Source: a virus. Taken from it: 64,000 nucleotides of DNA. A model generated the notes under the pieces. That model ran no database searches. It had not been told where the DNA came from and saw nothing but the letters and a program-made list of their open reading frames with translations. The translations under genes were made by a program, and so were the position numbers. This document shows positions 26,541 to 59,470 of the stretch, one piece after another (positions within the stretch are counted from its first letter, which is position 1; the number at the start of each line of letters is the position of its first letter). The DNA is taken from the IMG/VR virus record IMGVR_UViG_3300045988_151351, positions 128,001 to 192,000 of that record; one strand, 5' to 3'.

Positions 26541-26559
26541 AAAGAAAGGAATTGATACC

Positions 26560-28440: not shown

Positions 28441-28492
28441 TTGCCAATCGGGGCGGAGCAATCCGCCCCACCCAGAAGAAAGGTGGAATTAA

Positions 28493-29683: not shown

Positions 29684-29715
29684 AAAAGAGGGCATTAGCC
29701 CTCTTTTTTTTGTTC
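29683..29715 (+). terminator. rho-independent terminator (AAAAAAGAGGGCATTAGCCCTCTTTTTTTT)
   Basis: Hairpin plus T8. Confidence 0.8.
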
Positions 29716-43952: not shown

Positions 43953-44400
43953 TCTTAGTCTTAGGCGCGTAGACCTACTTTAGTATATAGAACATCTGAT
44001 TATTAGCAAGAAGCAAAAATAACTAATCCTCTAGAAGATATGTTATGGGATAGTTTAAATAAAGCTTTAGAAGAAGTTATTGAATCTTATAAAGCAATAG
44101 GGATTACTCCCCAACAATTAAAAGATGGATTAGTAACTATTCCAGAAGAAGAAATGACTGAAAAAGCAGAAGATGCTTTAAAGGAATATTATGAACAATT
44201 TGTTGATTTCAGAAAAGTTATTTGATTTTTAATAAAAAATAAGATATAATATATATGTAAGATAAAGAAAGGGTAAGAGAAATAAAGAAAAAACTTTTAC
44301 CCCGACTTTAAATCTTAATTGATTTTTAACAAAAAATAAGATATAATAAATATACAAAGAATAAATAAACTTTAAAAATGAAAGGTTAAAGGTGTTAATT

Positions 44401-45829: not shown

Positions 45830-46852
45830 TTGCGTGGGTTGAAAGCAAAAGAATATGAGACATTAGAGCAGCTATTTAAAATGAAACAGGGCAGCTTGCT
45901 TAAAACTATGTCTTATTTTCTTCAGAGTAAATACAAAACAGTAAAAACTACTGCGGATTATATTTATGCCATCGGTGATATTCCGATCGCTCTTGTAGCC
46001 CATATGGATACAGTTTTTCCTAAACCTGTTTCTGAGTTATATTATGATACAAGAAAAAATGTTATGTGGAGTCCGCAGGGTCTTGGAGCTGATGATCGAG
46101 CAGGCATATATGCGATTATTCAGATATTATGTTCTACAAATTTGCGTCCACATATCATTTTTACTACTGATGAAGAACGAGGCGGCATTGGAGCATCTGT
46201 ATTAGCTCAAGAGAATTGCCCATTTCCGCAGCTAAAGTATATGATTGAATTGGATAGACAAGGAAAAAATGATTGTGTATTCTATTCATGTGATAATGAT
46301 GATTTTGTAGCATATATTGAATCTTTTGGATTTATTGAAGATTTTGGTAGTTTTTCTGATATTAGTATTTTAGGACCAGCTTGGCAAGTGTGTAGCACAA
46401 ATTTATCAGTTGGTTATGAAAATGAACACACATATATTGAAACTCTAAATATTAGTGCTCTATTAAATACTATTGAAAAAGTCAAAAAGATGCTTCAAGA
46501 AGAATCTATCCCAGATTTTAAATATATTGAATTTAGTTTATCTACTAAAAGATGGTTCCAAGATTTATACAGCAGTAATGGAGCCGCAGGCGATAATGAT
46601 TTTTATGTTCATTGTAAGAAATGTAAGGGATTATTTTCTGGTTATGAGGTCTTTCCTGTGAAGGGATTAGATGGTAAGACTTGTTTTTATTGCCCTGATT
46701 GTATAGTAGAAAATATTGAATGGTGTGATAATTGTGGAGAACCATTTGAAATTGATCCAAATAATCCTAAGAAAATTTGTAATGATTGCGCAGGAGGCCT
46801 ACTTGAATGTCATTCGACATCAAAGAAATTAAAAAACAATTTGATGAAGTAA
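45830..46852 (+). CDS. M42/M28-like metallopeptidase fused to C-terminal zinc ribbons, 340 aa
   Basis: VAHMDTV, GADDRAG and TTDEERGGIGA motifs. C-terminal CKKC..CPDC..CDNC..CNDC. Confidence 0.45.
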   Translation: MRGLKAKEYETLEQLFKMKQGSLLKTMSYFLQSKYKTVKTTADYIYAIGDIPIALVAHMDTVFPKPVSELYYDTRKNVMWSPQGLGADDRAGIYAIIQILCSTNLRPHIIFTTDEERGGIGASVLAQENCPFPQLKYMIELDRQGKNDCVFYSCDNDDFVAYIESFGFIEDFGSFSDISILGPAWQVCSTNLSVGYENEHTYIETLNISALLNTIEKVKKMLQEESIPDFKYIEFSLSTKRWFQDLYSSNGAAGDNDFYVHCKKCKGLFSGYEVFPVKGLDGKTCFYCPDCIVENIEWCDNCGEPFEIDPNNPKKICNDCAGGLLECHSTSKKLKNNLMK

Positions 46853-48255
46853 TTCGTTATTCACAAGGAATTGAAAATCCTAAAACAGAAGAATTATTTA
46901 ATAGATTTTTAGACGCTAAAAGAGATTTTATTGAATTATTTGGTGGTAATCTAATCTATGAGTATCCATATGTATTACATTTAAAGCTTGATAAAAAAGA
47001 AAAACAAAAGAATTTAAATAATTTTTTGGATACAATTGATTGCTTATATAGCAATTATGATTTAATTGATTTTATTGAAACTAATAGAGATGGATTTTTT
47101 ACTAATCAAGTTATTGAAGAATATAAATTACCTGATGGTAAAATTATTCCAGTAGGCATGAAACTAGTTAAAGCATTTAAGTATTTTATTTCTGATAAAG
47201 ACTTATTGAATGATATTCAAAATAGCGCAAGTCGTGTTATCCAAGAGGATAAGATTGAAGGTAAGCTATGTATATCAGTTCATCCACTTGATTTTTTAAG
47301 TTCAAGTGAAAATACTTATAATTGGCGGTCTTGTCATGCACTTGACGGTGAATATCGCGCAGGAAATCTTTCATATATGGTTGATAAATCAACTGTAATT
47401 TGTTATTTAAAAGGTGCTGATGGGGTAAGATTACCTAATTTTCCTGAAGATGTGCTTTGGAATTCTAAAAAATGGAGAGTATTAATTTTCTTTGAAAAGA
47501 ATTGGAGAGCAATTTTTGCGGGTCGGCAGTATCCTCTTTCTACTTTAAGCGCTTTAGAGACTATTTCTATGTGTTTAAATAATATGGGAGTAGAGTTCCA
47601 TAGATGGGAAGATAGTAATATTACTGGTTATACTGATAAAATTTCTGGTAAGCAATATCCTTTAGATACTGATTATATTGCAATTGGTGGGAAGATTTAT
47701 CCAATTAAAGATAAAGTAGCAGATGCTAAAAATTCTTTACAATTTGATGATTTAATAAATTCTTCATGCTATCGACCTTATATGGCGGTTCGTGCAAGAG
47801 GATTTTATGCTAGTGATGCTGATGAATGGCATTGGGATATTGGCGGAGAAATTAATTGTTTAAATTGTGGTAAATCATTAATTGAGCATAGTGATTTTAT
47901 GCGATGTGATAGTTGTGAATTAGCATATGGTGATAGTGAAAATGATATTTTTGGATATTGTGACTGTTGTGGTCGCAGAATATTATTAGATGAAGCTTAT
48001 TATGTTGATTCAGACGAAATAGTTTGTAGTGATTGCTTTAAAAATGAATGTATGACTTGTGATAGATGCGGTAATGGATATTATCGTAGTTCTATGAAAT
48101 ATAATGAGGAATACCATAAGTATTTATGTCCTTGGTGTTCAGAAGATATGGAACGAGGAGAACCATTTGATTTAAAGCAATTAGTTTTTGATGAATGTAA
48201 TAAATTAGAGAAGAAAATAATGGAGGATAATAATGGCGAAGGGACAAATTGCTAA
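46807..48255 (+). CDS. large multi-zinc-ribbon protein, 482 aa; paralog of 42324..43952
   Basis: See 42324. Confidence 0.5.
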   Translation: MSFDIKEIKKQFDEVIRYSQGIENPKTEELFNRFLDAKRDFIELFGGNLIYEYPYVLHLKLDKKEKQKNLNNFLDTIDCLYSNYDLIDFIETNRDGFFTNQVIEEYKLPDGKIIPVGMKLVKAFKYFISDKDLLNDIQNSASRVIQEDKIEGKLCISVHPLDFLSSSENTYNWRSCHALDGEYRAGNLSYMVDKSTVICYLKGADGVRLPNFPEDVLWNSKKWRVLIFFEKNWRAIFAGRQYPLSTLSALETISMCLNNMGVEFHRWEDSNITGYTDKISGKQYPLDTDYIAIGGKIYPIKDKVADAKNSLQFDDLINSSCYRPYMAVRARGFYASDADEWHWDIGGEINCLNCGKSLIEHSDFMRCDSCELAYGDSENDIFGYCDCCGRRILLDEAYYVDSDEIVCSDCFKNECMTCDRCGNGYYRSSMKYNEEYHKYLCPWCSEDMERGEPFDLKQLVFDECNKLEKKIMEDNNGEGTNC

Positions 48256-48529: not shown

Positions 48530-48610
48530 GATTATTTTTGATTTTATAAAAAATAAATGATATAATATATATGTAAGATAAAGAAAGAAAGACTTTTACA
48601 GCAATAGTCA

Positions 48611-48683
48611 TCCAAAGTGGGGTAGAGGATAGCCTATCAGAGTAAAATTCTGAAGACCGCGGTTCGAATCCGCGCTTCGGAAA
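48611..48683 (+). tRNA. tRNA-like gene with a canonical cloverleaf but anticodon loop GTAAAAT (apparent anticodon AAA); isotype uncertain
   Basis: Acceptor TCCAAAG/CTTCGGA with 1 mismatch. D stem GGGT/GCCT. Anticodon stem TCAGA/TCTGA. T arm CGCGG-TTCGAAT-CCGCG. Confidence 0.35.
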
Positions 48684-48708
48684 AATGATTTATAAGTCTT
48701 GATTTTAT

Positions 48709-48779
48709 AGGGGTGTCGGTTAATGGTAAACCACCGGTCTCCAAAACCGGGACTCTCCGTTCGAGTCGGAGCGCCCCTG
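48709..48779 (+). tRNA. tRNA-Trp(CCA)
   Basis: Acceptor AGGGGTG/CGCCCCT. Anticodon stem CCGGT/ACCGG, loop CTCCAAA. T arm CTCCG-TTCGAGT-CGGAG. Confidence 0.6.
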
Positions 48780-48897
48780 CGGGAATTTGTCACAATACCT
48801 TCACGTGGTGTTCCTGTTTTTACTAAAGTTGTGGCAAGTTTGTTAAATTTACCTGCCAAAATTTTCATATATTACTGAGAAAGGTAGGTAAATTTTA

Positions 48898-49542
48898 ATG
48901 AATGGATTTATTTATAAAATTACAAATGATATAAATGATAAAGTATATATAGGAAAAACTTTATCATCTATTGAGAATAGATTCAAAGAACATAAGTAGG
49001 AAAGCCAAAGAGAGTCAGAACAAATTCGACCTTTATATCGAGCAATGAATAAATATGGAAATGAGCATTTTCATATTGAAGAAGTTGAAGAATGTCCTTT
49101 AGAAATTTTATCAGAAAGAGAAAAATATTGGATAAAATATTTTTCTTCTTATGAAAATGGCTATAATGCTACAATGGGTGGCGATGGTAAATAGTTATAT
49201 GATTATGATGAAATTGTAAAAGGTTTTTTATCAGGAAAATTAATGTATGAATTAGCAAATGAATTTGAATGCTGTCAAGATACTATCCGCGCAGCTTTAA
49301 GTTTAGCTAATATAGATTCTACTATTAATGCTAATAAAAAATTAAAAAAAGGAATTATAGCGAAAGATTTAAATGGAAATGTAGTAAAGATTTTTGATTC
49401 TCGGATAGAGGCTGTTAAATGGTTACAAGATAATAACTATGTTGCTAAATCTGTCGTAAAAGATAATGTTATAGCCGCAATAGGTCGAGTAGCTAATGGA
49501 AAACGTAAAAGTGCTTATAATTTGATTTGGGAAAATTTTTAA
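48898..49542 (+). CDS. GIY-YIG homing endonuclease (I-TevI-like), about 214 aa, 2 TAG codons
   Basis: GFIYKITNDINDKVYIGKT...RFKEHK is the GIY-YIG motif. EREKYWIKYF block. ORF 49243..49542 is in frame downstream of TAGs. Confidence 0.6.
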
Positions 49543-49995
49543 TATTTGCCAGTCAAAAAGAAATTTTTTGATTTTATAAAAAATAAATGATATAATATAT
49601 ATGTAAGATAAAGAAAGACAATTACAGCAATTTTAATTTTTTCAAATTGATTGGTAATCCGTGTGTTGTTGGTTCGAGTCCAACTCGTGCGTATTAATTT
49701 ACAAACGATAGCTCAAATGGCAGAGCAACGTAATTAAAAAAGTTGTCTTGTTTTATTTAGTTAAAAAATCTTTTTGATTTTTTATAAAAAATATGATATA
49801 ATATTTATATCAAATGAAAGAAAAAAATAAATAGTTTGGTAGTACCCAGAAAATGAGAGCTGAGCCTTGGGAGATGAGTCAAAGGAACAAAAGACTTTAT
49901 GAAGCGGACAGCCTCGCCAAACAAACCTTGCTTTCCCAAGCAGGTATATACTTACCTGTGACTCGCAGGACTAAATATTGGGAAGAGTATCTTAT

Positions 49996-50070
49996 GGGAG
50001 ACTAGCCTAGTGGTTCAGGCAGCGGACTGTTAATCCGCCAAGCAAGGTTCAATTCCTTGGTTTCCCGCCA
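49996..50070 (+). tRNA. tRNA-Asn(GTT)
   Basis: Acceptor GGGAGAC/GTTTCCC. Anticodon stem GCGGA/TCCGC, loop CTGTTAA. Encoded CCA. Confidence 0.6.
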
Positions 50071-50322
50071 TTATTGGTCTTATACATGGGGTTTCCGATT
50101 TGAACTAAATAGCTAATTACTATTCTTGTGGCAATAGACCAATTAAAAATAAACTGAGGCAAAGGGAAATCGGGTTTAATGTATAGCTATAAAGAAATTT
50201 TATAGTTAGCTATGATGAACTTCATAGTAAAATCCTCTCATAATCAAGTTAATTGGGAGAGGGGTAGTGCGGGAACGGGGAGAAGCGCGCTATAAAAGGT
50301 GAAATACTTCTTTCCACCATAT

Positions 50323-50398
50323 GCCGGTGTAGCCGAATGGCATAGGCGAATGATTTAGGATCATTAATCTGAAGGTTCGAGTCCTTTCACCGGTACCA
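50323..50398 (+). tRNA. 76-nt type-I tRNA with anticodon TAG (reads CUA/CUG); isotype uncertain
   Basis: Acceptor GCCGGTG/CACCGGT. Anticodon stem AATGA/TCATT, loop TTTAGGA. T arm GAAGG-TTCGAGT-CCTTT. A73 and CCA. Confidence 0.45.
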
Positions 50399-50464
50399 TA
50401 AGCCGATATCTTTGTACTATCCGGTGGTTGGCAACTCCATCGTTATGTAAATAAGTTGCTAATA

Positions 50465-50536
50465 TGCCTTATGGTGTAATGGAAACACGCCGCCCAGTAG
50501 AGGGCGGAGTCTTTGGTTCGAATCCAAATGAGGTAA
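50465..50536 (+). tRNA. tRNA-like gene with an 8-nt anticodon loop CAGTAGAG
   Basis: D stem GTGT/ACAC. Anticodon stem CCGCC/GGCGG. T arm TTTGG-TTCGAAT-CCAAA. Confidence 0.3.
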
Positions 50537-50874
50537 TGGTGATTAGAAAAGGGAATGATAATCGCCCATAAAGTAATATAGGATTATCATTATAGATTAT
50601 ATTTATTAAAAATGGCGGCTAAATCTTATATTAGTTACTTGAAAAATATGTGATGCTGCGAGACCTATCAAGTTAGTCTATAAATCACTTGAAGCTATCT
50701 TTTACGCTTACTCTTTTGATTGTTTGGACTGCTTTACGCAAAAGGAAAAATGGAAAAGAGGGTAAGGCTTAACCATAAAGCCAGCTTTTTTGTGAATGAC
50801 TTTTTAAGAGGGGATATAAAAGTTATTTAAGGTGATACTGCCTTGGCGGGTCCGGAACCGCCGAAATGTGATAT

Positions 50875-50958
50875 GCTCTGGTGGCGGAATGGCAGACGCG
50901 ATCGGCTCAAACCCGATTGTCGAAAGACGTGTGGGTTCAAGTCCCACTCTGAGCACCA
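50875..50958 (+). tRNA. tRNA-Leu(CAA), long variable arm
   Basis: Anticodon stem ATCGG/CCGAT, loop CTCAAAC. Variable arm TGTCGAAAGACGTG. T arm GTGGG-TTCAAGT-CCCAC. CCA. Confidence 0.6.
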
Positions 50959-51318
50959 AAAGGATTTAGCATATTAAATTCTTTTTGACATTTTTAAAAA
51001 AATATGATATAATATTTTTACAAAGTTAAGAAAGGAATTTAAAAAAGATGTTCAATGACTTTGATACTCAAATCCAATCCGATGAATTTGAATGGCAGTT
51101 CCTTGAATGGTGTAGACTAATGGAGGAGGAATATGGAAATGAATACCAAGAAGAAAATTGATAGACGCATCTTTAAGAAAAGTCCTGATGAACTTCAAGA
51201 ATATATGATGTTTAAACGACGCGGTTCTCGAACTCCTGCAAAAAAGGGTAAGGGAATGAAATATGAACGCGCACAAGAAAAAGAAAAGTCAAGAAATTTG
51301 GTTTCTGATAATTAATTT

Positions 51319-51394
51319 GGCCCCATCTACTAATTGGCTAGGTGGTAACCCTCTCAAGGTTAAGATGGCGGTTCGAATCCGTCTGGGGTCACCA
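51319..51394 (+). tRNA. tRNA-Glu(CTC)
   Basis: Acceptor GGCCCCA/TGGGGTC. Anticodon stem TAACC/GGTTA, loop CTCTCAA. Confidence 0.45.
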
Positions 51395-51463
51395 ATGCCT
51401 TTTACACCACCAAAAAGGCTGAGGTCCCGTGGGAGCCTCCCGCCAAAAGTCCCACATTTTTAA

Positions 51464-51540
51464 CGGCGCATAGACAAATAGGTATAGTCACTACCCTTTC
51501 AAGGTAGAATGTAGGGGTTCGACCCCCCTTGCGCTGACCA
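51464..51540 (+). tRNA. tRNA-Glu(TTC)
   Basis: Anticodon stem CTACC/GGTAG, loop CTTTCAA. T arm AGGGG-TTCGACC-CCCCT. Confidence 0.5.
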
Positions 51541-51543
51541 TAT

Positions 51544-51619
51544 GGTGCTGTAGTTCAGTTGGAAGAATGCCAGCCTGTCACGCTGGAGGTCGTGGGGTCA
51601 GGACCCATCAGCATCGCCA
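51544..51619 (+). tRNA. tRNA-Asp(GTC)
   Basis: Acceptor GGTGCTG/CAGCATC. Anticodon stem CCAGC/GCTGG, loop CTGTCAC. Confidence 0.55.
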
Positions 51620-51726
51620 TTCGCTTTTTCCTATGTAAGCGATTTTGAAGCATAGAACTTGATGGAGCGTTCTATTAGTCTGATGCCTGCATTAGATTAA
51701 GTTTTATAACCATCACAATTAAATAT

Positions 51727-51803
51727 GCCTGTGGAGCTTATGAGGAACAAGCGCTAGACTCATACCCTAGAGATATTTGGTTCGAATCCAAAGGCAGGCA
51801 CCA
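51727..51803 (+). tRNA. tRNA with anticodon CAT; candidate Ile2 or second Met
   Basis: D stem GCTT/AAGC. Anticodon stem CTAGA/CCTAG (4/5), loop CTCATAC. T arm TTTGG-TTCGAAT-CCAAA. Confidence 0.4.
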
Positions 51804-51804
51804 T

Positions 51805-51878
51805 TGCGGTGGTCTTCTAACGGTAGGATACTGGGCTCATAACCCGGAGACGCGGTTCGATTCCGCCGACCGCAACCA
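51805..51878 (+). tRNA. tRNA-Met(CAT)
   Basis: Anticodon stem CTGGG/CCCGG, loop CTCATAA. T arm CGCGG-TTCGATT-CCGCC. Confidence 0.5.
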
Positions 51879-52227
51879 GTTCAATTTATTTGAACAGTCT
51901 CCAATTTTTCATTTGATTGTCTTATTTTGTTCATAAAATGTAATATGTAAGCCCTTAGATGTTGTGCGTTTCTTCTAAGGTATCATAGTATTAGACGTAT
52001 TCAGCAAATATTCTTTAAGAATAATTTTCGTGATTTGGTTTCACATTTTAATTGCAAATTAAAACGAATAGGTTCGAGTCCTATATATTATCTTTTTACG
52101 TCTAGTGATTTTAATAAGTCGGTTAAGTACATTTAAATAGTTTCTATAATTGATTAAAAGACACAAACAGCCATTAAATATTTCTAATGATATTTGAAAG
52201 TAATTGTGTCTTGTTTTTTATTCCTAT

Positions 52228-52304
52228 GGGCAGATAGCTTATGAGGTCTGAGCACTGGTCTGAAAAACCAGAGGGTGAAGGGTCGGTACCTTCTCTGCCC
52301 ACCA
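52228..52304 (+). tRNA. tRNA-Phe(GAA) with a non-canonical T-loop GTCGGTA
   Basis: Acceptor GGGCAGA/TCTGCCC is perfect. D stem GCTT/GAGC. Anticodon stem CTGGT/ACCAG, loop CTGAAAA. Confidence 0.5.
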
Positions 52305-52572
52305 TTGAAGAACAGCACGAGAGGATCCATATAGGAATAATGATGTTGTATGGCTGCTGGGATTCCTTTGAAAGAATAAGGACTACTCTTTTCTATATAT
52401 TTGGATATATAGGAACAAAAAACTATTCAATAGAGAGAGTTTTTTACATCTAGTTTGTTTTATGTTTTTCTTTAACTTCCTGTTTTGTATCCTTTCGATG
52501 GGTGGTCATGTTTTGTTTTCTCTCCTCTTTCTGTAAAGCAAATCGTTTTTTTACTCTCTATTTTTCATATAT

Positions 52573-52664
52573 GCGGAGGTCGCATAGAGGCCGAGTGCGG
52601 GGGATTGCTAATCCCTTGACCGGGGCAACCCGGTCCGAGAGTTCGAATCTCTCCCTCCGCGCCA
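52573..52664 (+). tRNA. tRNA-Ser(GCT), long variable arm
   Basis: Acceptor GCGGAGG/CCTCCGC. Anticodon loop TTGCTAA. T arm GAGAG-TTCGAAT-CTCTC. Confidence 0.6.
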
Positions 52665-52841
52665 TTAGACTTGATAACTGCAAAAATCTACTACTAATAA
52701 TATTTTCAAATAATAGATAGATGAAATATTATGAAAATCTAAAGTAAGTAATTGGACAAACTTTGTATTTCAATAAGGAAAGTGATTTATTTACTTTTCT
52801 AATATTTATTTTCTAGTCCTGCGAGTCTAGTAATTGAATAT

Positions 52842-52932
52842 GCTGGGGTGCGCAAGCGGTCATAAGCGCCTAGTCTTGAAAACTTGTGTGAGCTAATTAC
52901 TCCCGTGGGTTCGAATCCCACCCCCAGCGCCA
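52842..52932 (+). tRNA. tRNA-Ser(TGA), long variable arm
   Basis: Acceptor GCTGGGG/CCCCAGC. Anticodon loop CTTGAAA. T arm CGTGG-TTCGAAT-CCCAC. Confidence 0.5.
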
Positions 52933-52957
52933 ACAAAAAGAAAGGATAATATAAATT

Positions 52958-54076
52958 ATGAATGTTGTTAATGCTGGTAGCCGATTTCAAATTTATGGTG
53001 AAGATGTAAAAACGTATAAGCGTCTTCCAACTATGTCTTTTGAAGTTAGCTTTAATAAAATGACTGGCTTTTTCTTGGTTTCTCGGCCTGATTTGTCAAT
53101 TAATGAAGAAAAGATTTACGGTAATCATGAAGCAAAAGTAAATAAAGTAATTAAATCTTACAAGTGTTCAACTCGTAATTTTGGTATTATTTTAAGCGGT
53201 CAAAAGGGTATTGGCAAGTCTCTATTTGCTCGCGTCCTTGCGGCAAAAGCTATCGAAAATGGATTTCCGGTAATCATTGTTAATGAATATATTCCGGGCA
53301 TTGCTAATTTTCTTAGCTCTATTGAGCAAGAAGTCGTAGTCATTTTTGACGAATTTGAAAAGACTTTTGGTGAAGTTGAGCATAGTGATCCGCAGGAAGA
53401 AATGCTTTCTTTGTTTGATGGACTTGATAATGGCAAGAAACTTTTTGTTATTACTTGTAATGAAACCCGTAAATTAAATGAGTATCTTCTTAATCGCCCC
53501 GGTCGTTTTCATTATCATTTTATGATTAATTATCCAACAGAAAATGAAATTAGAGAATATCTCAAAGATAAGTTGTCACCGGATTATTATGAGGTAATTA
53601 ATTCTATTGTTAATTTTTCTCGTACAATTAACATGACTTATGATTATCTGCGTGCTATTGTTTTTGAAATTAATCAGGGTTATAGCCTTGAGGAAACTTT
53701 AAATGATCTTAATATCACTCAGAGCAGTTCTGTTACTTTCAATATGACAGTTACTCTCACTTCTGGTAAAGTATATACAACTTATGGTCGTCATATTGAT
53801 TTGGCTGAGACTTCTTATGAATGGTATGACGCATATGATACCAAGAGTGATAATAGATTACGGTTTGCGATTATTCCTAGCAAAATCACTTTTAGAGATG
53901 GACAGCTTTATATCAAGGGTGAAAATACTAAGATTTATGTTGATCCTGACGATTATTGGCAGATTGAAGACGAAGATGAGCGCAAGGCTGTAATTAAAAA
54001 GGCTGAGTCTCAGAGCATTAAAGAAGTTACTTTCCAGAAAAATACTCCTGATTTTACAACGAAGTATCTTGTTTGA
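52958..54076 (+). CDS. AAA+ ATPase, 372 aa
   Basis: Walker A GQKGIGKS, Walker B VVVIFDEFE, sensor NRPGRF. Confidence 0.6.
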   Translation: MNVVNAGSRFQIYGEDVKTYKRLPTMSFEVSFNKMTGFFLVSRPDLSINEEKIYGNHEAKVNKVIKSYKCSTRNFGIILSGQKGIGKSLFARVLAAKAIENGFPVIIVNEYIPGIANFLSSIEQEVVVIFDEFEKTFGEVEHSDPQEEMLSLFDGLDNGKKLFVITCNETRKLNEYLLNRPGRFHYHFMINYPTENEIREYLKDKLSPDYYEVINSIVNFSRTINMTYDYLRAIVFEINQGYSLEETLNDLNITQSSSVTFNMTVTLTSGKVYTTYGRHIDLAETSYEWYDAYDTKSDNRLRFAIIPSKITFRDGQLYIKGENTKIYVDPDDYWQIEDEDERKAVIKKAESQSIKEVTFQKNTPDFTTKYLV

Positions 54077-54142
54077 TTTTATAAAAAATTTATGATATAA
54101 TATATATGTAAGGTTGAGAGATAAATAATCTCTCCCTTATAT

Positions 54143-54228
54143 GCCGGTGTGGTGGAATGGTAGACACAAGGGACTTAAAATCCCTCGGTGGCAGCACTGT
54201 GCGGGTTCGAGTCCCGCCACCGGCACCA
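54143..54228 (+). tRNA. tRNA-Leu(TAA), long variable arm
   Basis: Acceptor GCCGGTG/CACCGGC. Anticodon stem AGGGA/TCCCT, loop CTTAAAA. CCA. Confidence 0.6.
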
Positions 54229-54260
54229 CGTAGATATTAATCTACGAAGTTAGGCTTAAC

Positions 54261-54626
54261 TTGAAAATATTTTATGAATCCAGTAGAAAAGAAAGTTTCT
54301 ACTGGATAAAAGCATTAGGAGGCTTTAAAATGAAATTTTATTCAGAACTGACAAAGAATTTTTATGAAAGTGAAGATGCCTGTAAGCAGGCTGAAAGTAA
54401 GTTCAATAAAGAGCTTGCTGAGAAGGAAGCTAAGGAGAAGGCTTTGAAGGCTGAACGTAAGCAGCGCGCCGAAGAGGTTAATGATGCATACAAGGCTATT
54501 AAAGAAGCTGAAAAGCATTATTGCGAACTCCGCGATCAATTTATAAAGGATTATGGTAGTTTCCATATGACATTTACTGATACTGGTAGTTTCTTCTTTG
54601 ATCCTTTCAGATTTACTATTCTGTAA
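54261..54626 (+). CDS. coiled-coil protein, 121 aa
   Basis: K/E-rich heptads. Confidence 0.4.
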   Translation: MKIFYESSRKESFYWIKALGGFKMKFYSELTKNFYESEDACKQAESKFNKELAEKEAKEKALKAERKQRAEEVNDAYKAIKEAEKHYCELRDQFIKDYGSFHMTFTDTGSFFFDPFRFTIL

Positions 54627-54789
54627 TGAATGTGCCGTTTCCTGTTTATCCGATCTTTTAGACGGGAAACGGCATTTTCCTCATATTTGGGTCTTTAGCT
54701 CAGTTGGCAGAGCACCTGATTCTTAATCAGGGTGTCCGGGGTTCAAGCCCCCGAAGGCCCACCAAATTTAGTTAGGAGTAAAAATTATT

Positions 54790-55668
54790 ATGGAGTATAC
54801 TGGATATTTTGTCAAATTTAATAATTTTGCTGCGCACCCCTCTGGAACAGGTCGTTTACATATTGATGTTTTAAGTAAATATTCTCAAGTACTTTGGGGA
54901 CAATGGCGAAATGGTATAAATCTTTTGAATGAAAAAATTCGTAAAGAAATGAATGATGTTGCACCTTTTAAGTTTTATGCTTTAGATAAATCTGTAGCTT
55001 TATTAAAAATGAATGTGACTCGAGTACTTACTCGTGAAGAAGTTATTGCAGAAAAGTTAGAATATCTTATTCCAGATTATTATAATATTGATACACCATG
55101 TTCAGCATATTATCTTATTGATAAAATTGAAATTCTACCCGTTGAATCTGCACTTAAAATAATTAATATCAATACTAAGAAGTCAATCTATGATTCAGCT
55201 CAAGTGAATAGTACGACTCCTTGGAGAGTATGTGAAATTGATAATGATTTAGGAATAGAAAATATTGTTATTCCTAGTGTAACAACTAAATCTGTTAAAT
55301 TTAATCCGCCTGTCTCTTCTGAAAATATATCTAATATTATTTCTCATAAGTCTAAAAATGAAACCTATTGTATTTATCAATATTATTCTAAAACTATGAA
55401 GAAAAGTTATATTGGCTTAACTAATGATATTAATAGGCGTAAAAAAGAACATGAAAGTCCTAGCAATTGGACGCGAGAAAAGAAAAAATATCTTTATACA
55501 GCAATGCAACTTATGGGATTAGATGATTTTGAATTCCATATTCTGCATGATAATTTGTCTGAGGAAGATGCTCATTACTGGGAAGCAAAAGAAATTGAAA
55601 ATCATCATTCTTATTTCCCGGACGGATTCAATGAAAGAAATGAATCCCGATTCTTAAAAAATATTTGA
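54790..55668 (+). CDS. protein with a C-terminal GIY-YIG nuclease domain, 292 aa
   Basis: YCIYQYYSKTMKKSYIGLTNDINRRKKEHES is the GIY-YIG motif. Confidence 0.5.
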   Translation: MEYTGYFVKFNNFAAHPSGTGRLHIDVLSKYSQVLWGQWRNGINLLNEKIRKEMNDVAPFKFYALDKSVALLKMNVTRVLTREEVIAEKLEYLIPDYYNIDTPCSAYYLIDKIEILPVESALKIININTKKSIYDSAQVNSTTPWRVCEIDNDLGIENIVIPSVTTKSVKFNPPVSSENISNIISHKSKNETYCIYQYYSKTMKKSYIGLTNDINRRKKEHESPSNWTREKKKYLYTAMQLMGLDDFEFHILHDNLSEEDAHYWEAKEIENHHSYFPDGFNERNESRFLKNI

Positions 55669-55735
55669 TTTTTTAAAAAATTTATGATATAATATATATG
55701 TAAGGTTGAGAGATAAATAATCTCTCTCTTATATG

Positions 55736-56020
55736 CCGGATTAAACAATAGTAGCTAACGATAGTTGAATAGACGGGTCGGGGCTAACATAGAAAGGTTA
55801 GCAGGTAGTGCGGCGGTAGGTAACAAATCCGCAAGTCGAAATGAGTCGGGAAAACCGAATGATACGGCTTAGATGTTTTCCTCATTTGAGGTTTGGATGG
55901 AGATTTTAGGCGAAGGATAACAACCTTTGACTGCCATCTTGTAAAGCGACCATGAAACCGGGTCATAGCTACCATGCTATTGTTTATTTTTAATGTGCGG
56001 GTTTAAGTCCCACCACTAGT
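55736..56020 (+). ncRNA. structured non-coding RNA candidate, about 285 nt, expressed from a duplicate of the tRNA-Leu(TAA) promoter and leader
   Basis: Promoter and leader at 55660-55745 are near-identical to 54075-54152. First 10 nt TATATGCCGG are shared with the tRNA. No ORF. Ends with a T-arm-like GCGGGTTTAAGTCCCAC. Confidence 0.35.
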
Positions 56021-56039
56021 ATTAAATCTATCCCTTTAG

Positions 56040-56116
56040 CTTAGTGGAATAAAGCGCGTGGCTACGAACCACGAGACCGGGAGTTCGAGTCTCTCAAGGG
56101 ATGCCATGTGGCTGTA
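56040..56116 (+). tRNA. tRNA-Arg(ACG)
   Basis: Acceptor ATCCCTT/AAGGGAT. D stem GCTT/AAGC. Anticodon stem CGTGG/CCACG, loop CTACGAA. Confidence 0.55.
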
Positions 56117-56117
56117 G

Positions 56118-56193
56118 TTCAGTTGGTAGAACGTCTGATTGTGGCTCAGAAGGTCGTGGATTCAATTTCCACCAGTCACCCCATATGCTCTCG
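56118..56193 (+). tRNA. tRNA-His(GTG)
   Basis: Acceptor GTGGCTG/CAGTCAC. Anticodon stem TCTGA/TCAGA, loop TTGTGGC. Confidence 0.55.
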
Positions 56194-56196
56194 TAG

Positions 56197-56335
56197 CTCA
56201 ATCGGTAAGAGCCGGCGACTTATCCAAGATTAGTTTAAATGGTAAAATAGTCTATGCGCAAGAAAGATGTAAGTTCAAATCTAACATCTTGGGCCAAATC
56301 GCCAGATGTGGGTTCAAGTCCCGACGGGAGCACCA
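56197..56335 (+). tRNA. 139-nt tRNA with an insertion of about 79 nt in the anticodon loop; the insertion is itself tRNA-like
   Basis: Outer acceptor GCTCTCG/CGGGAGC, D stem GCTC/GAGC, anticodon stem GGCGA...TCGCC. The insert is bounded by CCAAGAT/ATCTTGG (7/7 bp) with D-arm GTTT-AAATGGTA-AAA and T-arm GTAAG-TTCAAAT-CTAAC. Confidence 0.4.
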
Positions 56336-56703
56336 TTAACCAACAAGCCTATGGCGACAACTCTAAGCTCAAACCGTTGGTTTTCTGAACAAACGAATAA
56401 AAACCTTTCGTTCTAAGACCTAAAGTACGAAGCAGGGTGACAACCTCCAGAAATGGGACTTAGTTTTGGGTTAAAGTTGAGCGTTTATTATAAATTGATC
56501 TCGTCAATTAATTTTTAATAAATGCGATTTTTTATGCAAAAGTAGTCAAGAGGTTTAAGACCCCAATCTGCAAAACTGTGTGACTCTTTGGGCGTGGGTT
56601 CGAATCCCGATGGGAGCACCATAAGGCATAAACAGCAAATAATTAAATATTTTGCCATTTTCTTTTAAGCGAATGACGCACCATTTTATTATGCCTAGTA
56701 TAT

Positions 56704-56780
56704 ACTTCATTAGCTCAATGGACGAGAGCATCTGATTTCTAATCAGAGGGTTTGAGGTTCGAGTCCTCAATGAAGTGCCA
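56704..56780 (+). tRNA. tRNA-Arg(TCT)
   Basis: Acceptor ACTTCAT/ATGAAGT. D stem GCTC/GAGC. Anticodon stem TCTGA/TCAGA, loop TTTCTAA. Confidence 0.55.
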
Positions 56781-56795
56781 ATGTGAGGATTATAA

Positions 56796-57146
56796 ATGAA
56801 AATTGAATTTAAACAAAGTCAAGCTGATTATTTTAATTATGTAATTCAAAAATATGGCGGTAGTTGGGAATTATCTGAAGGAGTTATTATTCTTCAAAAT
56901 GAAGATGACTATTTCCGAATTGAACATAATAATGTTACAACTGGAAAATTATATACTGCTTGGCATAAAAATCATTTTCATAATAAAAATGATTTTCATA
57001 AACAATTATCATTACATAATTTAAGAAAATTGTTTTTTAGATGTGCTACTCATAAAATGCGTTGTAAAGAAAAAAGATGTTATAAGCGTTCAGATTATAT
57101 TCAAGATATGGAAGATTATAGAAATTTTCAGAAAGCTTTAAAATGA
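56796..57146 (+). CDS. hypothetical protein, 116 aa, in the tRNA island
   Basis: Intact ORF with RBS. Confidence 0.4.
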   Translation: MKIEFKQSQADYFNYVIQKYGGSWELSEGVIILQNEDDYFRIEHNNVTTGKLYTAWHKNHFHNKNDFHKQLSLHNLRKLFFRCATHKMRCKEKRCYKRSDYIQDMEDYRNFQKALK

Positions 57147-57199
57147 TAAATTGATTTTATAAAAAATTTATGATATAATATTTATACAAGATAAAGAAA

Positions 57200-57325
57200 G
57201 ACAGTATCAGCAATTAATGATATTTGCTTTGGGAGCCGGAAATTATAGGTTCGAATCCTATATCCCTGACCAATTTCGGGGATTAGTTTAAATGGATAAA
57301 ACGCCGTTAAAAATCTGTCTTGTGT
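57200..57325 (+). ncRNA. candidate circularly permuted or split tRNA: a 3' half (T-arm TATAGG-TTCGAAT-CCTATA, acceptor ATCCCTG, ACCA) directly followed by a 5' half (acceptor CGGGGAT, TA, D-arm GTTT-AAATGGAT-AAAC)
   Basis: The two acceptor strands pair 7/7 with one G-U. Anticodon-stem halves CCGTT and GCCGG pair 4/5. Confidence 0.3.
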
Positions 57326-57327
57326 AT

Positions 57328-57404
57328 GGAGATGTAGTTCAGTTGGTTAGAATATTCGACTGATAATCGAAAGGTCAGTGGTTCAAATCCACTCATCTCT
57401 ACCA
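57328..57404 (+). tRNA. tRNA-Ile(GAT)
   Basis: Acceptor GGAGATG/CATCTCT. Anticodon stem TTCGA/TCGAA, loop CTGATAA. Confidence 0.55.
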
Positions 57405-57430
57405 TTATTCCAACAGAAAGGAATTTTAAG

Positions 57431-57670
57431 ATGAAACTTACAAACATTTCTCAGGTCGAAGATTTTATCGCCGCGGTTAATCGCGCACATAGTAATGTAT
57501 GGCTTGTAAGTCCGCAGGGTGATAGATATAATATGAAATCTGCGCTTTCTCAGTATATTGCTCTTGGAGCTTTGCTTGGTCAGCATGGTGATGAACTTGA
57601 GCTTTTCTGTGATAGTAAGCAGGATGAAGGATTGTTTATTGAATTTTTCGTTAAGCATCCTGAAGTCTAA
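57431..57670 (+). CDS. small hypothetical protein, 79 aa
   Basis: RBS AAAGGAATTTTAAGATG. Confidence 0.4.
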   Translation: MKLTNISQVEDFIAAVNRAHSNVWLVSPQGDRYNMKSALSQYIALGALLGQHGDELELFCDSKQDEGLFIEFFVKHPEV

Positions 57671-57708
57671 TTTAACATTTAAACTATTTTAATTAAAATA
57701 GTTTATAT

Positions 57709-57785
57709 CCGGGTGTAGTTCAGTTTGGTAGAACGCTTGATTTGGGATCAAGAGGCCGTGAGTTCAAGTCTCGCCACTCGGACCA
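57709..57785 (+). tRNA. tRNA-Pro(TGG)
   Basis: Acceptor CCGGGTG/CACTCGG. Anticodon stem CTTGA/TCAAG, loop TTTGGGA. Confidence 0.55.
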
Positions 57786-58080
57786 TCAGGGTTCTGTTAA
57801 AAATATATAATTGAAAAGGATTGATCTCCCTGAGTAGATTTGTATTTGAATGAAAAAATGAGGTCTAGATGACACAGATAACCTCCCCTGAACCATCCCT
57901 TTTCCTAATATGTGGTCTGGGTTAAACAATTAGGCACTGCTCGTATTCATATTACCTATGCGGTATATGGATTCCTCGTATTTAAGACTCTGTAACAGCA
58001 AATGATTTAACATAATAACTGTTTAATTCTCTTTTAAAGAATTTTTTGTAATTTTGTTTTTAAGAGTCTTGTTTAATTAT

Positions 58081-58155
58081 ACTGGTGTCGCCAAGTGGGA
58101 AGGCACAGGACTTTGACTCCTGTATTCGTTGGTTCAAATCCAACCACCAGTGCCA
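58081..58155 (+). tRNA. tRNA-Gln(TTG)
   Basis: Acceptor ACTGGTG/CACCAGT. Anticodon stem CAGGA/TCCTG, loop CTTTGAC. Confidence 0.55.
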
Positions 58156-58239
58156 TTGTGCCAGAAGAACAAATGATCCGATGGGCAAATAAAATATTTA
58201 TTCGGGATGTGTGGTTCAACTACCTAAAGTTATTTATAT

Positions 58240-58325
58240 GGGAGAGTGGCAGAGTGGTCAATTGCGGCGGACTGTAAATCCGTTGCCTTCGGGCTTCGTT
58301 GGTTCAAATCCAACCTCTCCCACCA
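58240..58325 (+). tRNA. tRNA-Tyr(GTA), long variable arm
   Basis: Acceptor GGGAGAG/CTCTCCC. Anticodon loop CTGTAAA. Confidence 0.55.
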
Positions 58326-58415
58326 ATTAAAAGATTAATTACGAGAAAAATAAGTAAAAATTTATTTGATTTTTATAAAAATAAATGATATAATATTTAT
58401 AGAAAATAAAGATAT

Positions 58416-58492
58416 GCGAGATTAGCGCAGCTGGTTAGCGCATCTGCCTTACAAGCAGGAGGTCACTGGTTCGAGTCCAGTATTTCGCACCA
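58416..58492 (+). tRNA. tRNA-Val(TAC)
   Basis: Acceptor GCGAGAT/ATTTCGC. Anticodon stem TCTGC/GCAGG, loop CTTACAA. Confidence 0.55.
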
Positions 58493-58539
58493 CATGGTGG
58501 TTATTCATTCATTCCTTTCTTTTAGTTAAAAACATAGAC

Positions 58540-58650
58540 GCATACAGCAAAAACACAAATTTTGTGTATTATCGGTTCAAGTCCGATTCCGCCGTCCTTT
58601 GGCAGATAGTTTAATGGTTAAACAACAAAAAAAAAATGCGTCTTGGTGAT
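58540..58650 (+). ncRNA. second candidate permuted or split tRNA: T-arm ATCGG-TTCAAGT-CCGAT plus acceptor TCCGCCG, then 5' acceptor TGGCAGA, TA, D-arm GTTT-AATGGTTA-AAAC, then ACAAA pairing the upstream TTTGT
   Basis: Acceptor pairing 6/7. D stem perfect. Anticodon-stem halves ACAAA/TTTGT complementary. Confidence 0.3.
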
Positions 58651-58652
58651 AT

Positions 58653-58727
58653 TGAGGGGTAGCATAGCGGCAAATGCGCCGGTCTCTAAAACCGGATAAG
58701 TGGGGTCGGCACCCACCCCCTCCGCCA
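58653..58727 (+). tRNA. amber suppressor tRNA-Sup(CTA), 75 nt, canonical cloverleaf, with glutamine-like identity
   Basis: D stem GCAT/ATGC. Anticodon stem CCGGT/ACCGG, loop CTCTAAA (U33, C34 U35 A36, A37). T arm GTGGG-GTCGGCA-CCCAC. Acceptor (T)GAGGGG/CCCCTCC with unpaired 1:72, G73 and CCA. Confidence 0.7.
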
Positions 58728-59470
58728 TAAGTAAAGCAATATGTTCAAAGCATTGATAAGACTTTACTTCGATAGGACGTAGGATTAGAAGTGTCCAGCG
58801 TTTAAAGATTGATTTGCGATCGCGAGGTAAATCTTTGGTCAAAAGACACACTATCGGGGTTTGAAGATAAACCTTAAAATCTTCGCCATATGTTGAACTC
58901 TTTAATAGTGACATAATATAACCTTTGGGATATATTTATTTCACATCAACAGTGTATTTTATTCCTAATAGAGTATAAGAATAACGTTCCAATACGAAAC
59001 ATTGGTGAATAATAGGATATAATTTAATTAATGAAGATGTTTGGATCATATGTTTGTTAAAGTAATCATCGGTGAAATGGCAGTAAGATTTCCTATTTAA
59101 ATCTAACCAAACTGAATACTAAAATCGAACCGAGAAAAGACTCTGTGAAATAAATATTGTAAATTCTGATGGATAGCTTAATGCTTGATAGGAATGGGTT
59201 GGACAGCATAACGCAACATATGTGTTAGCGGTTATGGAGTAAGAATTTACAATATTTAAAGTAATAGAGTCTTTTTGTTTTATATAGAAAGTACGGCAAA
59301 GCTGCTCCGGCCGGTGTCAATCGCACATATCGTAAAACCAAATAAAAATAAGCCCTTAGAAATTTTTGTTACAATTTCTAAAGGCTTATTTTTTTAGGCC
59401 AGAAAAAGACCTATTATCTCATTTATTTTTTAAAAAAATATAGGAAAATATTATTAAAGGGGGCTAAACA

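Follow-up and report, generated by a model that had tools for sequence, protein, structure and literature searches.

The tRNA island of a human-gut phage predicted to read TAG as glutamine: an amber suppressor and candidate tRNA-mimic elements

Why does a phage devote some 10 kb to tRNA genes, and what do the other genes and spacers lodged among them contribute? The question is raised by a 64,000-nucleotide stretch of viral DNA from a human-gut metagenome (positions 128,001 to 192,000 of IMG/VR record IMGVR_UViG_3300045988_151351; hereafter the window, numbered from its first letter), in which tRNA-like genes, two GIY-YIG genes and an AAA+ ATPase gene form a compact island. Large tRNA arrays with homing endonucleases are already known from phages, and codon compensation and shielding from tRNA-targeting defences are plausible general explanations for such arrays (PMC10264068, PMC11464382, PMC11555353). 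We suggest, with a probability of about 0.8, that this island is a tRNA and non-coding RNA (ncRNA) super-operon, an early decoding kit of a large code-15 Bacillota phage of the human gut, which supplies an amber suppressor and in which a family of stem-closed elements would serve as punctuation.

The tRNA genes were called with ARAGORN and with the Rfam model RF00005 (gathering score 29 bits) over the 64-kb window. ARAGORN found 25 tRNA genes, all on the + strand and all within 48611-58727, with 0 elsewhere in the window, and RF00005 gave 25 matches in the same stretch at its gathering score. The matches at 51806-51874 (a second CAT tRNA) and 56187-56332 (146 nt) were missed by ARAGORN, and E-value mode added those at 50465-50536 and 52021-52092, for a total of 27 RF00005 matches (37.8-75.2 bits, within 48611-58724), 25 of which were found independently by ARAGORN. 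Together, the two methods place 25-27 tRNA-like genes in about 10 kb. A sequence-only reading of the same DNA, which had counted at least 21, is thus borne out, and automated tools found neither far fewer tRNAs nor mostly pseudogenes: by a tally from the ARAGORN structures, 23 are canonical, with Rfam scores of 39-75 bits.

TAG as a sense codon and the amber suppressor tRNA

When TAG is read as sense, positions 1-13000 of the − strand become 11 tightly tiled genes. This late structural and packaging block (599-12997, − strand), which includes major capsid protein-like, portal, TerL and sigma-factor-like genes, holds 38 in-frame TAGs, and all of its genes end in TAA. The translated genes align over their full length with PHROG families, through the TAGs (portal, 2.1e-73); the portal gene holds 7 TAGs, the TerL pieces 9 and the others 3-5 each. 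In-frame TAGs occur in late capsid, portal, terminase and tail genes alike. TAG positions 64, 379 and 469 of TerL and 446 of the portal are Gln in three out of three homologues, including those of the standard-code Enterococcus phage EF1, and over the TerL and portal alignments as a whole Gln is the residue most commonly found opposite a TAG. Residues opposite the TAGs of the first GIY-YIG gene and of a tail-like open reading frame (ORF) fell at variable positions and were uninformative; TerL and portal were used instead.

The TAG codons are unevenly distributed. The late − strand block has 38 among 3935 codons (9.7 per 1000), as against 0 in most early promoter-driven + strand genes, and a wider late set contains 40 TAGs alongside 130 CAA/CAG, compared with 0 TAGs in a curated early set. 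In addition, nearly all genes terminate with TAA and the rest with TGA, TAG being avoided as a stop. These alignments and counts indicate that the phage reads TAG as Gln, i.e. uses genetic code 15, as an already known kind of phage does.

The island closes with an amber suppressor tRNA gene (anticodon CUA; 58653-58727, + strand; ARAGORN, Rfam 45.6 bits). It bears U1 opposite C72, i.e. a 1:72 mismatch, together with G73 and U35, and the suppressors of about 20 related loci share U1 with the 1:72 mismatch, G73 and the stem GGU-CUCUAAA-ACC. In Escherichia coli, a weak 1:72 pair, G73 and U35 are identity elements of glutaminyl-tRNA synthetase. By analogy with the E. coli enzyme, the suppressor would thus be of the Gln type, in agreement with the alignment evidence for TAG as Gln. 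The sequence-only reading had listed this Sup(CUA) gene correctly and missed its meaning: if the genome is TAG-recoded, as the late genes indicate, the island that carries the suppressor has a concrete and necessary function.

That function, an amber suppressor and a decoding set for a phage that reads TAG as Gln, is well supported and agrees with a published phage group. The phAss-1 group comprises gut phages with TAG as Gln, 28-36 tRNAs, Sup-CTA tRNAs and probably Clostridia hosts (Babkin et al. 2023; PMC10607447). phAss-1 itself (proposed Phassvirus, 'Caudoviricetes code 15 clade') is the closest named relative by its portal (40% identity), and portal and TerL are both homologous to those of the window at 40-44% identity. 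It shares with the window phage the human-gut origin, a genome of about 135 kb or more, a probable Clostridia host, TAG-to-Gln recoding in virion and packaging genes, a single co-oriented tRNA region that includes tRNA-Sup(CTA), and the lack of a phage aminoacyl-tRNA synthetase. The two are nevertheless distant and resemble each other at the nucleotide level in single tRNAs only. Both the AAA+ ATPase and the elements described below are missing from the tRNA region of phAss-1 (28 kb), and phAss-1 has three suppressors as compared to the one seen in the window. Likewise, a comparison of the island at the nucleotide level with 50,697 phage records returned single-tRNA matches only and no close deposited genome.

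In recoded phages more generally (crAss-like, Lak, Jade, Agate), the suppressor tRNA is thought to gate late-gene translation (PMC10607447). The window phage resembles them in the concentration of reassigned stops in late structural genes, in early genes compatible with the standard code and in a phage-encoded suppressor, but belongs to another lineage, its portal and terminase having SPbeta/EF1-like relatives in Bacillota phages. Among 52 related IMG/VR loci, which carry up to 39 co-oriented tRNAs, about 30 have a Sup(CTA) gene. Relatives of the island's ATPase come mostly from contigs that were binned with Oscillospiraceae, Lachnospiraceae, Ruminococcus and similar metagenome-assembled genomes (MAGs), and the host is probably a member of the Clostridia within the Bacillota.

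The island is furnished with repeated promoters of one type. A motif of the form TTGAYWTT-(A-rich)-TGATATAAT occurs 19 times in the window as compared to 0 copies expected, always on the + strand and between 29928 and 58394, with eight copies in the island; the promoter reiteration that had been noticed from the sequence alone is thus a real feature of the locus. A generic sigma-70 scan gave overall no more matches than chance, and its top + strand matches with a TG extended -10 are exactly the eight island copies. The type is a near-consensus sigma-70 promoter with an extended -10, which also precedes the TAG-free gene block just upstream of the island. Copy 1 (48538-48566) reads TTGATT-17-TATAAT with the TG extension, copies 2 and 3 lie at 49568-49596 and 49774-49802, and copy 4 (50985-51013; TTGACA-17-TATAAT) agrees with the consensus at 12 of 12 positions. 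Copy 5 with its leader runs into tRNA-Leu(UAA) (54073-54145) and is the first copy of a 77-nt direct repeat; copy 6 (55665-55739) is followed by the duplicated leader with the first 5 nt of tRNA-Leu (GCCGG). Copies 7 and 8 are at 57151-57179 and 58366-58394. A 20-bp hairpin flanked by T and A runs (59345-59392) resembles a bidirectional terminator and separates the island from the late genes.

Stem-CAGCAA elements between the tRNA genes

Reading of the spacers revealed, between the tRNAs of the island, eight elements of a common form, 5'-(A)AGAC-N3-5-(N)-CAGCAA ... N3-5-GUCU-UG-3', in which the variable N positions of the two ends are complementary. We number these stem-CAGCAA elements S1 to S8; all lie on the + strand. 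Several have orthologs in L062, a related locus with 75% identity in the ATPase and 70-79% nucleotide identity in the flanks. S1 (48590-48699; 83% identical to its L062 ortholog) has the stem AGACTT/AAGTCT and encloses as cargo the tRNA-like 'Phe(AAA)' at 48611-48682, which lacks CCA. S3 (51993-52103), recognized by motif and L062 ortholog, has the stem AGACGTA/TACGTCT and as cargo the tRNA-like 'Cys(GCA)' of 26% GC at 52021-52092. S4 (52159-52211) is a short hairpin form with a z-score of -6.0. S5 (56624-56696; 92% identity to L062) has the stem AGGCATAA/TTATGCCT and contains CTTTTAA; it begins 3 nt past a ...CCA end and ends 7 nt before tRNA-Arg. In S7 (57985-58069; motif and fold) the cargo is a bare mimic of the tRNA-Lys(UUU) anticodon stem-loop, aattctCTTTTAAagaatt, and such a bare hairpin mimic is the only form in which the island contains the Lys-UUU anticodon stem-loop.

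The remaining three elements are permuted tRNA mimics, with the 3' half upstream of the 5' half and leader and trailer paired, an order also found in at least 24 copies in relatives. S2 (49616-49748; fold and a sub-threshold Rfam YrlA match) consists of a T-arm, a loop-closed acceptor stem and a D-arm, with a Thr-like loop TTGGTAA. S6 (57199-57320; fold and L062 ortholog) has a Pro-like loop TTTGGGA and a CCA in the loop that closes the acceptor stem. S8 (58536-58643; motif and ortholog alignment) ends 9 nt before the suppressor tRNA and is arranged as closing stem, hairpin, T-arm, closed acceptor stem and D-arm.

The helices of the elements are kept intact by compensatory changes, both between relatives at 68-80% nucleotide identity and across loci whose ATPases are only about 50% identical. 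Between S3 and its L062 ortholog, changes in the stem and the T-arm are compensated while the 'anticodon' changes from GCA to GTT; between S6 and its ortholog (68% overall identity), T-arm, acceptor stem and D-arm have all been rewritten yet remain complementary, and TGG has become TAG. Over ten orthologs of S8, 97.5% of the cells are paired, as compared to 22-49% in slid controls, and 9 of the 20 pairs have both partners changed; shuffles gave 3.5±1.3 such pairs, and none of 500 reached 9.

For statistics on the family we searched 1.0 Mb of sequence, made up of the window and 53 related loci. On the tRNA strand the 5' motif is present 251 times, as compared to 13 on the opposite strand. Of the 251 copies, 106 are followed at 20-230 nt by a perfect 7-nt Watson-Crick complement, while a reversed-triplet control gave 1 and an upstream control 3. 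The 3' end of the element is located 5-14 nt ahead of the next tRNA in 88 of about 200 cases, and the 5' end 0-9 nt after the previous tRNA in 62. The cargo falls into permuted tRNA mimics (often with CCA in the closing loop), normal-order or acceptor-less tRNA-like modules, and bare anticodon stem-loop hairpins; among the hairpin loops, Lys-UUU (CTTTTAA) leads with 19 cases, ahead of Tyr, Ile, Leu, Asn and Gly.

Elements are absent from the phAss-1 and Herelleviridae loci and occur in bacterial-genome contigs only where tRNA arrays are present, and a scan of IMG/VR with a 14-base element motif returned scattered single matches on both strands, as expected by chance. Rfam has no family for them, and we did not find them described in the literature searched, a search that was incomplete, so that a prior description is possible. 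Based on these comparisons, the stem-CAGCAA elements apparently form an undescribed family of conserved, strand-specific and covarying tRNA mimics. We tentatively propose, at rather less than even odds, that they represent a new class of phage ncRNA in which a recognition module is combined with interchangeable tRNA mimics, acting as punctuation or as nuclease decoys, with some perhaps being permuted tRNA genes. The conserved module, i.e. the helix AGAC-N/N-GUCU with the single-stranded CAGCAA, may be recognized by a protein or an RNase.

Other spacers are conserved as well. The ORF-free stretches at 56386-56606, 57830-57932, 58771-58855 and 52390-52453 retain a nucleotide identity of 76-84% in distant related loci, in which proteins are only about 50% identical; Rfam has no match for these four, which are probably further small structured RNAs. 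The 740 nt between the suppressor tRNA and the first late gene (58728-59470) contain no credible ORF and are 78.6% conserved with L062, the level of coding DNA. Related arrays harbor, on the same strand, ROOL RNA (312.6 bits) and tmRNA genes (95-100 bits), at 13421-14012 of locus L014, 5569-5914 of L016 and 8853-9191 of L028. These RNAs and the conservation of spacers beyond that of proteins suggest that these tRNA arrays are hubs for structured RNAs generally.

A model for the island and the competing explanations

We envisage that host RNA polymerase would transcribe the island early from its eight strong repeated promoters, and that host RNase P and 3' processing enzymes would free the tRNAs from polycistronic precursors. 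The suppressor tRNA would be charged with Gln by a host enzyme and accumulate, upon which the late TAG-containing mRNAs, as well as that of the first GIY-YIG gene, would become translatable. The other tRNAs would reinforce the decoding of very AT-rich codons and may replace host tRNAs lost to defence nucleases. The elements would serve as structured punctuation, that is, as tRNA-like handles by which RNase P or another endonuclease sets the ends of neighboring tRNAs. We favor such punctuation due to the position statistics and the precedent of a YrlA RNA that has a 7-bp acceptor stem and is a substrate of RNase P (PMC4201824), which lends support to the notion of RNase P cutting the permuted modules as well.

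Several points weigh against this model. Expression timing, tRNA charging and processing are deduced from sequence. The early/late split in TAG usage is not absolute, because some promoter-driven early genes carry TAG, namely 44975-45778 (two) and the tail of 42324-44225 (four). The suppressor is present in a single copy, as seen within the 64-kb window of a 201-kb contig. With respect to the elements, there is no candidate factor that would read AGAC/GUCU and CAGCAA, and since about half of the elements have no T-loop, a model based purely on RNase P is weakened. Finally, the replacement of anticodon-like loops between orthologs (TGG to TAG, GCA to GTT), which argues against a role in decoding, fits a decoy role as well as punctuation.

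The island might instead serve mainly to evade tRNA-targeting defences (anticodon nucleases, PARIS, retron effectors, Schlafen-like RNases), with its canonical tRNAs being nuclease-resistant replacements and its elements acting as decoys or inhibitors that titrate such enzymes. In other phages, tRNAs have been shown to help evade host defences (PMC10264068, PMC11555353), and tRNA-Lys(UUU), whose loop is the one most often copied by the cargo hairpins with their canonical anticodon loops, is a classic target of anticodon nucleases (PMC2610378, PMC11464382). In keeping with decoys, the only Lys tRNA supplied is tRNA-Lys(CUU), even though AAA is the commoner codon in the late genes (303 versus 143 for the other Lys codon), in addition to the Lys-UUU stem-loop mimics in S7 and S5, and the mimics would not be aminoacylatable as encoded because their acceptor stems are closed. 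However, no nuclease, target or host is known here, and decoys would need neither placement 5-14 nt upstream of tRNA 5' ends nor a shared closing helix with CAGCAA; moreover, the suppressor tRNA and the TAG-recoded late genes would be left unexplained. We therefore consider defence evasion as the main function possible and yet unlikely, while noting that it is compatible with a super-operon and decoding kit and does not exclude it.

The permuted elements also call to mind Y RNAs, and it is conceivable, if improbable, that the elements are Y-RNA-like scaffolds, analogues of YrlA, in which helix and CAGCAA bind a protein like the Ro60/Rsr module while the cargo recruits a second factor, such as a tRNA-modifying or -degrading enzyme. 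YrlA RNAs have been reported in phages and follow the same modular plan of a conserved stem and a variable domain (RF02553; Chen et al. 2014, PMC4201824): S2, S6 and S8 have their order of T-arm, closed acceptor stem and D-arm, and in both kinds of RNA the two ends pair into a stem that holds the tRNA-like domain. In a local scan, S2 matched the whole YrlA model in this order (35.9 bits, E=1.4e-6). Yet the scores of 35.9 bits (49644-49753) and 24.8 bits (57237-57307) do not reach the gathering score of 69, the alignment skips the Ro-binding part of the model, and the elements have neither a Ro60-binding module nor the GNCGAA(N)G motif. Scanning 20 ORFs of the island and upstream of it against Pfam gave no TROVE/Ro60 protein, and no rsr gene was seen. 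Unlike the single YrlA/YrlB genes beside rsr, the elements are present in eight copies embedded between tRNA genes and share their own module of AGAC/GUCU and CAGCAA.

We judge it very improbable that the permuted modules are true permuted tRNA genes, circularized at AGAC/GUCU and opened by RNase P and a 3' nuclease to give Thr, Gly and other tRNAs. Permuted tRNA genes of the eukaryotic red alga Cyanidioschyzon merolae, which Soma et al. are said to have described in 2007, are similar in that the 3' half comes first, a short linker joins the acceptor ends, often after CCA, and leader and trailer pair near the anticodon arm. In line with such genes, many element copies keep CCA directly past the acceptor 3' strand, the island has no canonical Thr, Gly, Ala or Cys tRNAs, and anticodon-loop-like sequences include Thr-like GGT/TGT (S2 and its L062 ortholog), Gly TCC (L014, 17164) and Tyr GTA (L016, 16220). 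The C. merolae genes, however, require a splicing endonuclease and a ligase as well as a bulge-helix-bulge motif, and none of the three was identified in the window; a Pfam scan of 20 ORFs revealed neither a tRNA-splicing endonuclease nor an RNA ligase, and no circularizing tRNA pathway is known in bacteria. In addition, S2 has a 4-bp acceptor stem without CCA, as do several such modules, S8 has no anticodon arm, and S6 would duplicate the Pro UGG tRNA already present as a normal gene. The loop sequences are also not conserved between orthologs, the identity shifting from Pro-like TGG to TAG in S6 and from GCA to GTT in S3.

Least probable of all, and disfavored for the element family given the covariation, is that the island is largely a graveyard in which anomalous tRNAs and modules are decaying pseudogenes and recombination scars of homing-endonuclease traffic: the interrupted tRNA-Trp with CCAA at both insert borders and no counterpart elsewhere, the tRNA 3' fragment at 56560-56623, the duplicated promoter and leader and the abundant indels between close relatives would fit, but the compensatory changes that keep the element helices across relatives, the strand bias of 251 to 13, the placement relative to tRNA ends and the 23 tRNAs of 39-75 bits, all but one with an encoded CCA, speak against it.

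Gene content and mosaic structure of the island

All tRNA genes are on the + strand and, unless stated otherwise, were found by both ARAGORN and Rfam. The isotypes of the sequence-only reading are correct as listed, and the list was short by Lys(CUU) and Leu(UAG). The canonical set starts with tRNA-Trp(CCA) (48709-48780; 56.4 bits), the only member whose CCA end is not encoded, followed by Asn(GUU) (49996-50070; 59.7 bits) and Leu(UAG) (50323-50398; 62.7 bits), which has no long variable arm and an acceptor stem identical to that of tRNA-Leu(UAA). Next are Leu(CAA) (50875-50958), Glu(CUC) (51319-51394), Glu(UUC) (51464-51540), Asp(GUC) (51544-51619), a low-scoring Met(CAU) with two mismatched pairs (51727-51803; 39 bits) and the second CAU tRNA (51806-51877; Rfam alone, 47.9 bits), in which three G-C pairs adjoin the anticodon loop and which thus reads as initiator-like. 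Phe(GAA) (52228-52304), Ser(GCU) (52573-52664) and Ser(UGA) (52842-52932) precede the ATPase gene, the last ending 26 nt ahead of its start codon. Beyond it lie Leu(UAA) (54143-54228), Lys(CUU) (54689-54764; 66.9 bits) in a window-specific insert, Arg(ACG) (56030-56106), His(GUG) (56108-56183), Arg(UCU) (56704-56780), Ile(GAU) (57328-57404; 75.2 bits), Pro(UGG) (57709-57785), Gln(UUG) (58081-58155), Tyr(GUA) (58240-58325), Val(UAC) (58416-58492) and the suppressor. L062 carries, at 8693-8765 and in roughly the array place of the window tRNA-Met(CAU), a tRNA without blastn similarity to it whose anticodon UUA would read ochre UAA.

In these 23 genes the anticodon loop measures 7 nt and includes U33, the acceptor stem is intact, and the 3' CCA is either part of the gene or can be added. 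Four others deviate, namely those at 48611 (odd loop, no CCA), 50465 (8-nt loop), 52021 (26% GC, no CCA) and 56187 (73-nt insert). The 'Phe AAA' gene at 48611 and the 'Cys GCA' gene at 52021 are the cargo of stem-closed elements. The gene at 50465-50536 (ARAGORN, Rfam 47.8 bits) lacks CCA and has an anticodon loop of 8 nt (CAGUAGAG); it could encode a tRNA of the frameshift type or one that does not decode. The isotype of its L062 counterpart (7622-7696) is likewise not assignable. The fourth is an interrupted tRNA-Trp(CCA) (56187-56335; 41.4 bits in a 146-nt Rfam match), in which an insert of 73 nt separates nt 33 from nt 34. This insert resembles a tRNA in its own right, having an acceptor stem of 7 bp (CCAAGAT/ATCTTGG), a D-arm (GTTTAAATGGTAAAAT) and a T-loop (TTCAAAT); it is below the size of a group I intron and repeats CCAA at both borders. 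No related locus compared has a counterpart, and the gene may be a pseudogene or hold an unusual intron. ARAGORN's intron mode, run on all loci in search of further interrupted tRNAs, yielded mostly artefacts (class II variable arms, fused neighbors) and was not used.

With regard to codon usage, GC3 of the phage is 0.20-0.26, and the GC-rich Ala and Gly codon boxes are without an island tRNA; ARAGORN found no tRNA for Ala, Gly, Thr or Cys in the window. The non-suppressor tRNAs are able to read about 61-66% of the phage codons.

The AAA+ ATPase (52958-54076, + strand; 372 aa, 0 TAG codons), whose presence had been noted as unexplained, belongs to the classical clade (PF00004, 6.7e-12) and is a full-length member of phrog_2376 (3.7e-103). 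Its Walker A motif (GQKGIGKS) and Walker B motif (VVIFDEFE) do not vary among 46 homologues. In an AlphaFold model (pLDDT 80.8), the AAA module appears nearest to protein-remodelling machines, the top Foldseek matches being FtsH, Bcs1, proteasomal Rpt and Cdc48/AFG2 (E about 1e-9). Co-oriented tRNAs flank the gene on both sides in 46 of 53 loci (52 from IMG/VR and the window), with the nearest upstream tRNA ending a median of 34 nt ahead of the start codon. The closest relative is 98% identical, and its cluster at 90% identity comprises 340 member sequences in public runs.

This synteny might suggest a functional coupling of ATPase and tRNAs, an idea that is weakened by tRNA-free homologue loci and by the protein-unfoldase-like fold. 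Homologues sit inside the tRNA array of the Enterococcus Schiekvirus phiSHEF13 and at the edge of that of Lactococcus phage 949 (about 40% identity), but have no tRNA neighbors in the Herelleviridae-type phages Brochothrix A9, Bacillus TsarBomba and WH1, and 62 of 80 homologue loci in bacterial genomes or MAGs have no tRNA within 6 kb. Because of the latter, the ATPase is probably not a tRNA-related enzyme. It is best described as a conserved phage gene with a protein-directed role around which tRNA genes accumulated in tRNA-rich lineages, a partial explanation of its presence. The arrays of phiSHEF13 and phage 949 further resemble the island in being co-oriented and interspersed with small ORFs and GIY-YIG/HNH homing endonucleases, and phage 949 has an annotated tRNA-Sup; they differ in their standard code and the lack of stem-CAGCAA elements.

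The two GIY-YIG endonucleases that had been recognized from the sequence are both real, with qualifications. The first (48898-49542, + strand; 214 aa) is intact only if the in-frame TAGs at residues 34 and 99 are both read as sense, and phrog_7168 (1.8e-25) aligns across both, over residues 3-201; phrog_5123 also matches (1.8e-18). Its C-terminal half lies within this homing-endonuclease PHROG alignment and has no Pfam domain. With homology running through both TAGs, the gene would be under the same translational control as the late genes. Homologues occur at varying positions in 14 of about 57 related loci. In the second protein (54790-55668, + strand; 292 aa), the GIY-YIG domain is confined to the C-terminal residues 193-281 (PF01541, 7.9e-7, above cut-off; TIGR01453, 6.6e-8, below cut-off), and the unrelated N-terminal domain has only a weak PUA-like match (E=0.0012, below cut-off). 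It has no homologue among the related loci and may not be a homing enzyme at all.

That the island is mosaic, as had been surmised from the endonucleases, follows from the absence of both GIY-YIG genes from L062 (75% identical). L062 lacks four blocks of the window: 48781-49614, with the first GIY-YIG gene; 54229-56029, with a 101-aa ORF, tRNA-Lys(CUU), the second GIY-YIG gene, the second tRNA-Leu promoter and leader, and a RAGATH-33 RNA; 56140-56622, with the interrupted tRNA-Trp; and 56783-57150, with ORF116. It has in turn a 243-aa ORF of its own. The second block corresponds to a 1.8-kb insert bounded by the 77-nt direct repeat, which comprises promoter and leader together with the initial 5 nt of tRNA-Leu. 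The GIY-YIG genes, tRNA-Lys(CUU), RAGATH-33 and ORF116 are thus lineage-specific insertions. RAGATH-33 (RF03102; 55754-55866, + strand) matches the full model (1-113 of 113) with 137.9 bits, compared to a gathering score of 120.4. The name of this orphan structured RNA family presumably implies an association with homing-endonuclease genes, and the window copy indeed adjoins a gene of this type; it differs in following the duplicated tRNA-Leu promoter and leader within a lineage-specific insert. No mention of RAGATH-33 was found in the literature searched.

Four small ORFs, all on the + strand, complete the island: a basic one of 60 aa (51133-51315), conserved in 18 related loci; the Lys/Glu-rich coiled coil of 101 aa in the window-specific insert (54321-54626), absent from L062; ORF116 (56796-57146; 116 aa), without detectable relatives and likewise absent from L062; and one of 79 aa (57431-57670), conserved in four related loci and L062. 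Just upstream of the island, 42324-43952 and 46807-48255 encode large paralogous proteins (542 and 482 aa) with Cys-rich C-termini that are conserved in several related loci and lack matches in Pfam, PADLOC and PDB. Nor did sequence searches of PADLOC, NCBIfam and PDB return a significant match for these paralogs, the second GIY-YIG protein or ORF116. The early gene 42324-43952 stops at TAG, in the series TAG TCT TAG TCT TAG, which is followed by a fourth TAG and, about 90 codons on, a TGA (43953-44225). The series either acts as a guard of tandem stops against the suppressor or specifies a C-terminal extension that depends on suppression.

Farther upstream, positions 16000-30000 form a compositionally distinct, GC-richer block (0.40-0.455 compared to about 0.32 elsewhere) of many short + strand genes, each with a near-consensus TTGACA-17-TGnTAnAAT promoter. 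Spurious long ORFs appear there on both strands because stop triplets are scarce. The idea that 15-30 kb is non-coding or otherwise recoded, raised by the lack of long ORFs under any single stop reassignment, was rejected in view of these short + strand genes with consensus promoters. An intergenic 28-nt tandem repeat (TTTCCGTGATTTGAAATCGAAAAATGTT; 3.1 copies, 98% identity) is located at 15179-15264.

Taken together, the island is a compact example of a possible code-switch layout in a recoded phage, with host-type promoters, a near-complete decoding set and the suppressor in one early block. The TAG-laden late genes lie outside this block, and a resident homing endonuclease would depend on TAG suppression as well. 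For annotation, this means that under translation table 11 the portal, the terminase and one GIY-YIG gene look like pseudogenes. The comparison of ATPase loci removes the tempting inference that an ATPase in a tRNA array must be a tRNA factor. The stem-CAGCAA family, if confirmed, would constitute a new type of tRNA mimic and bear on why phages carry tRNA arrays, be it for processing, defence evasion or decoys. Should some elements prove to be permuted tRNA genes matured by circularization, they would be the first case outside eukaryotes and archaea.

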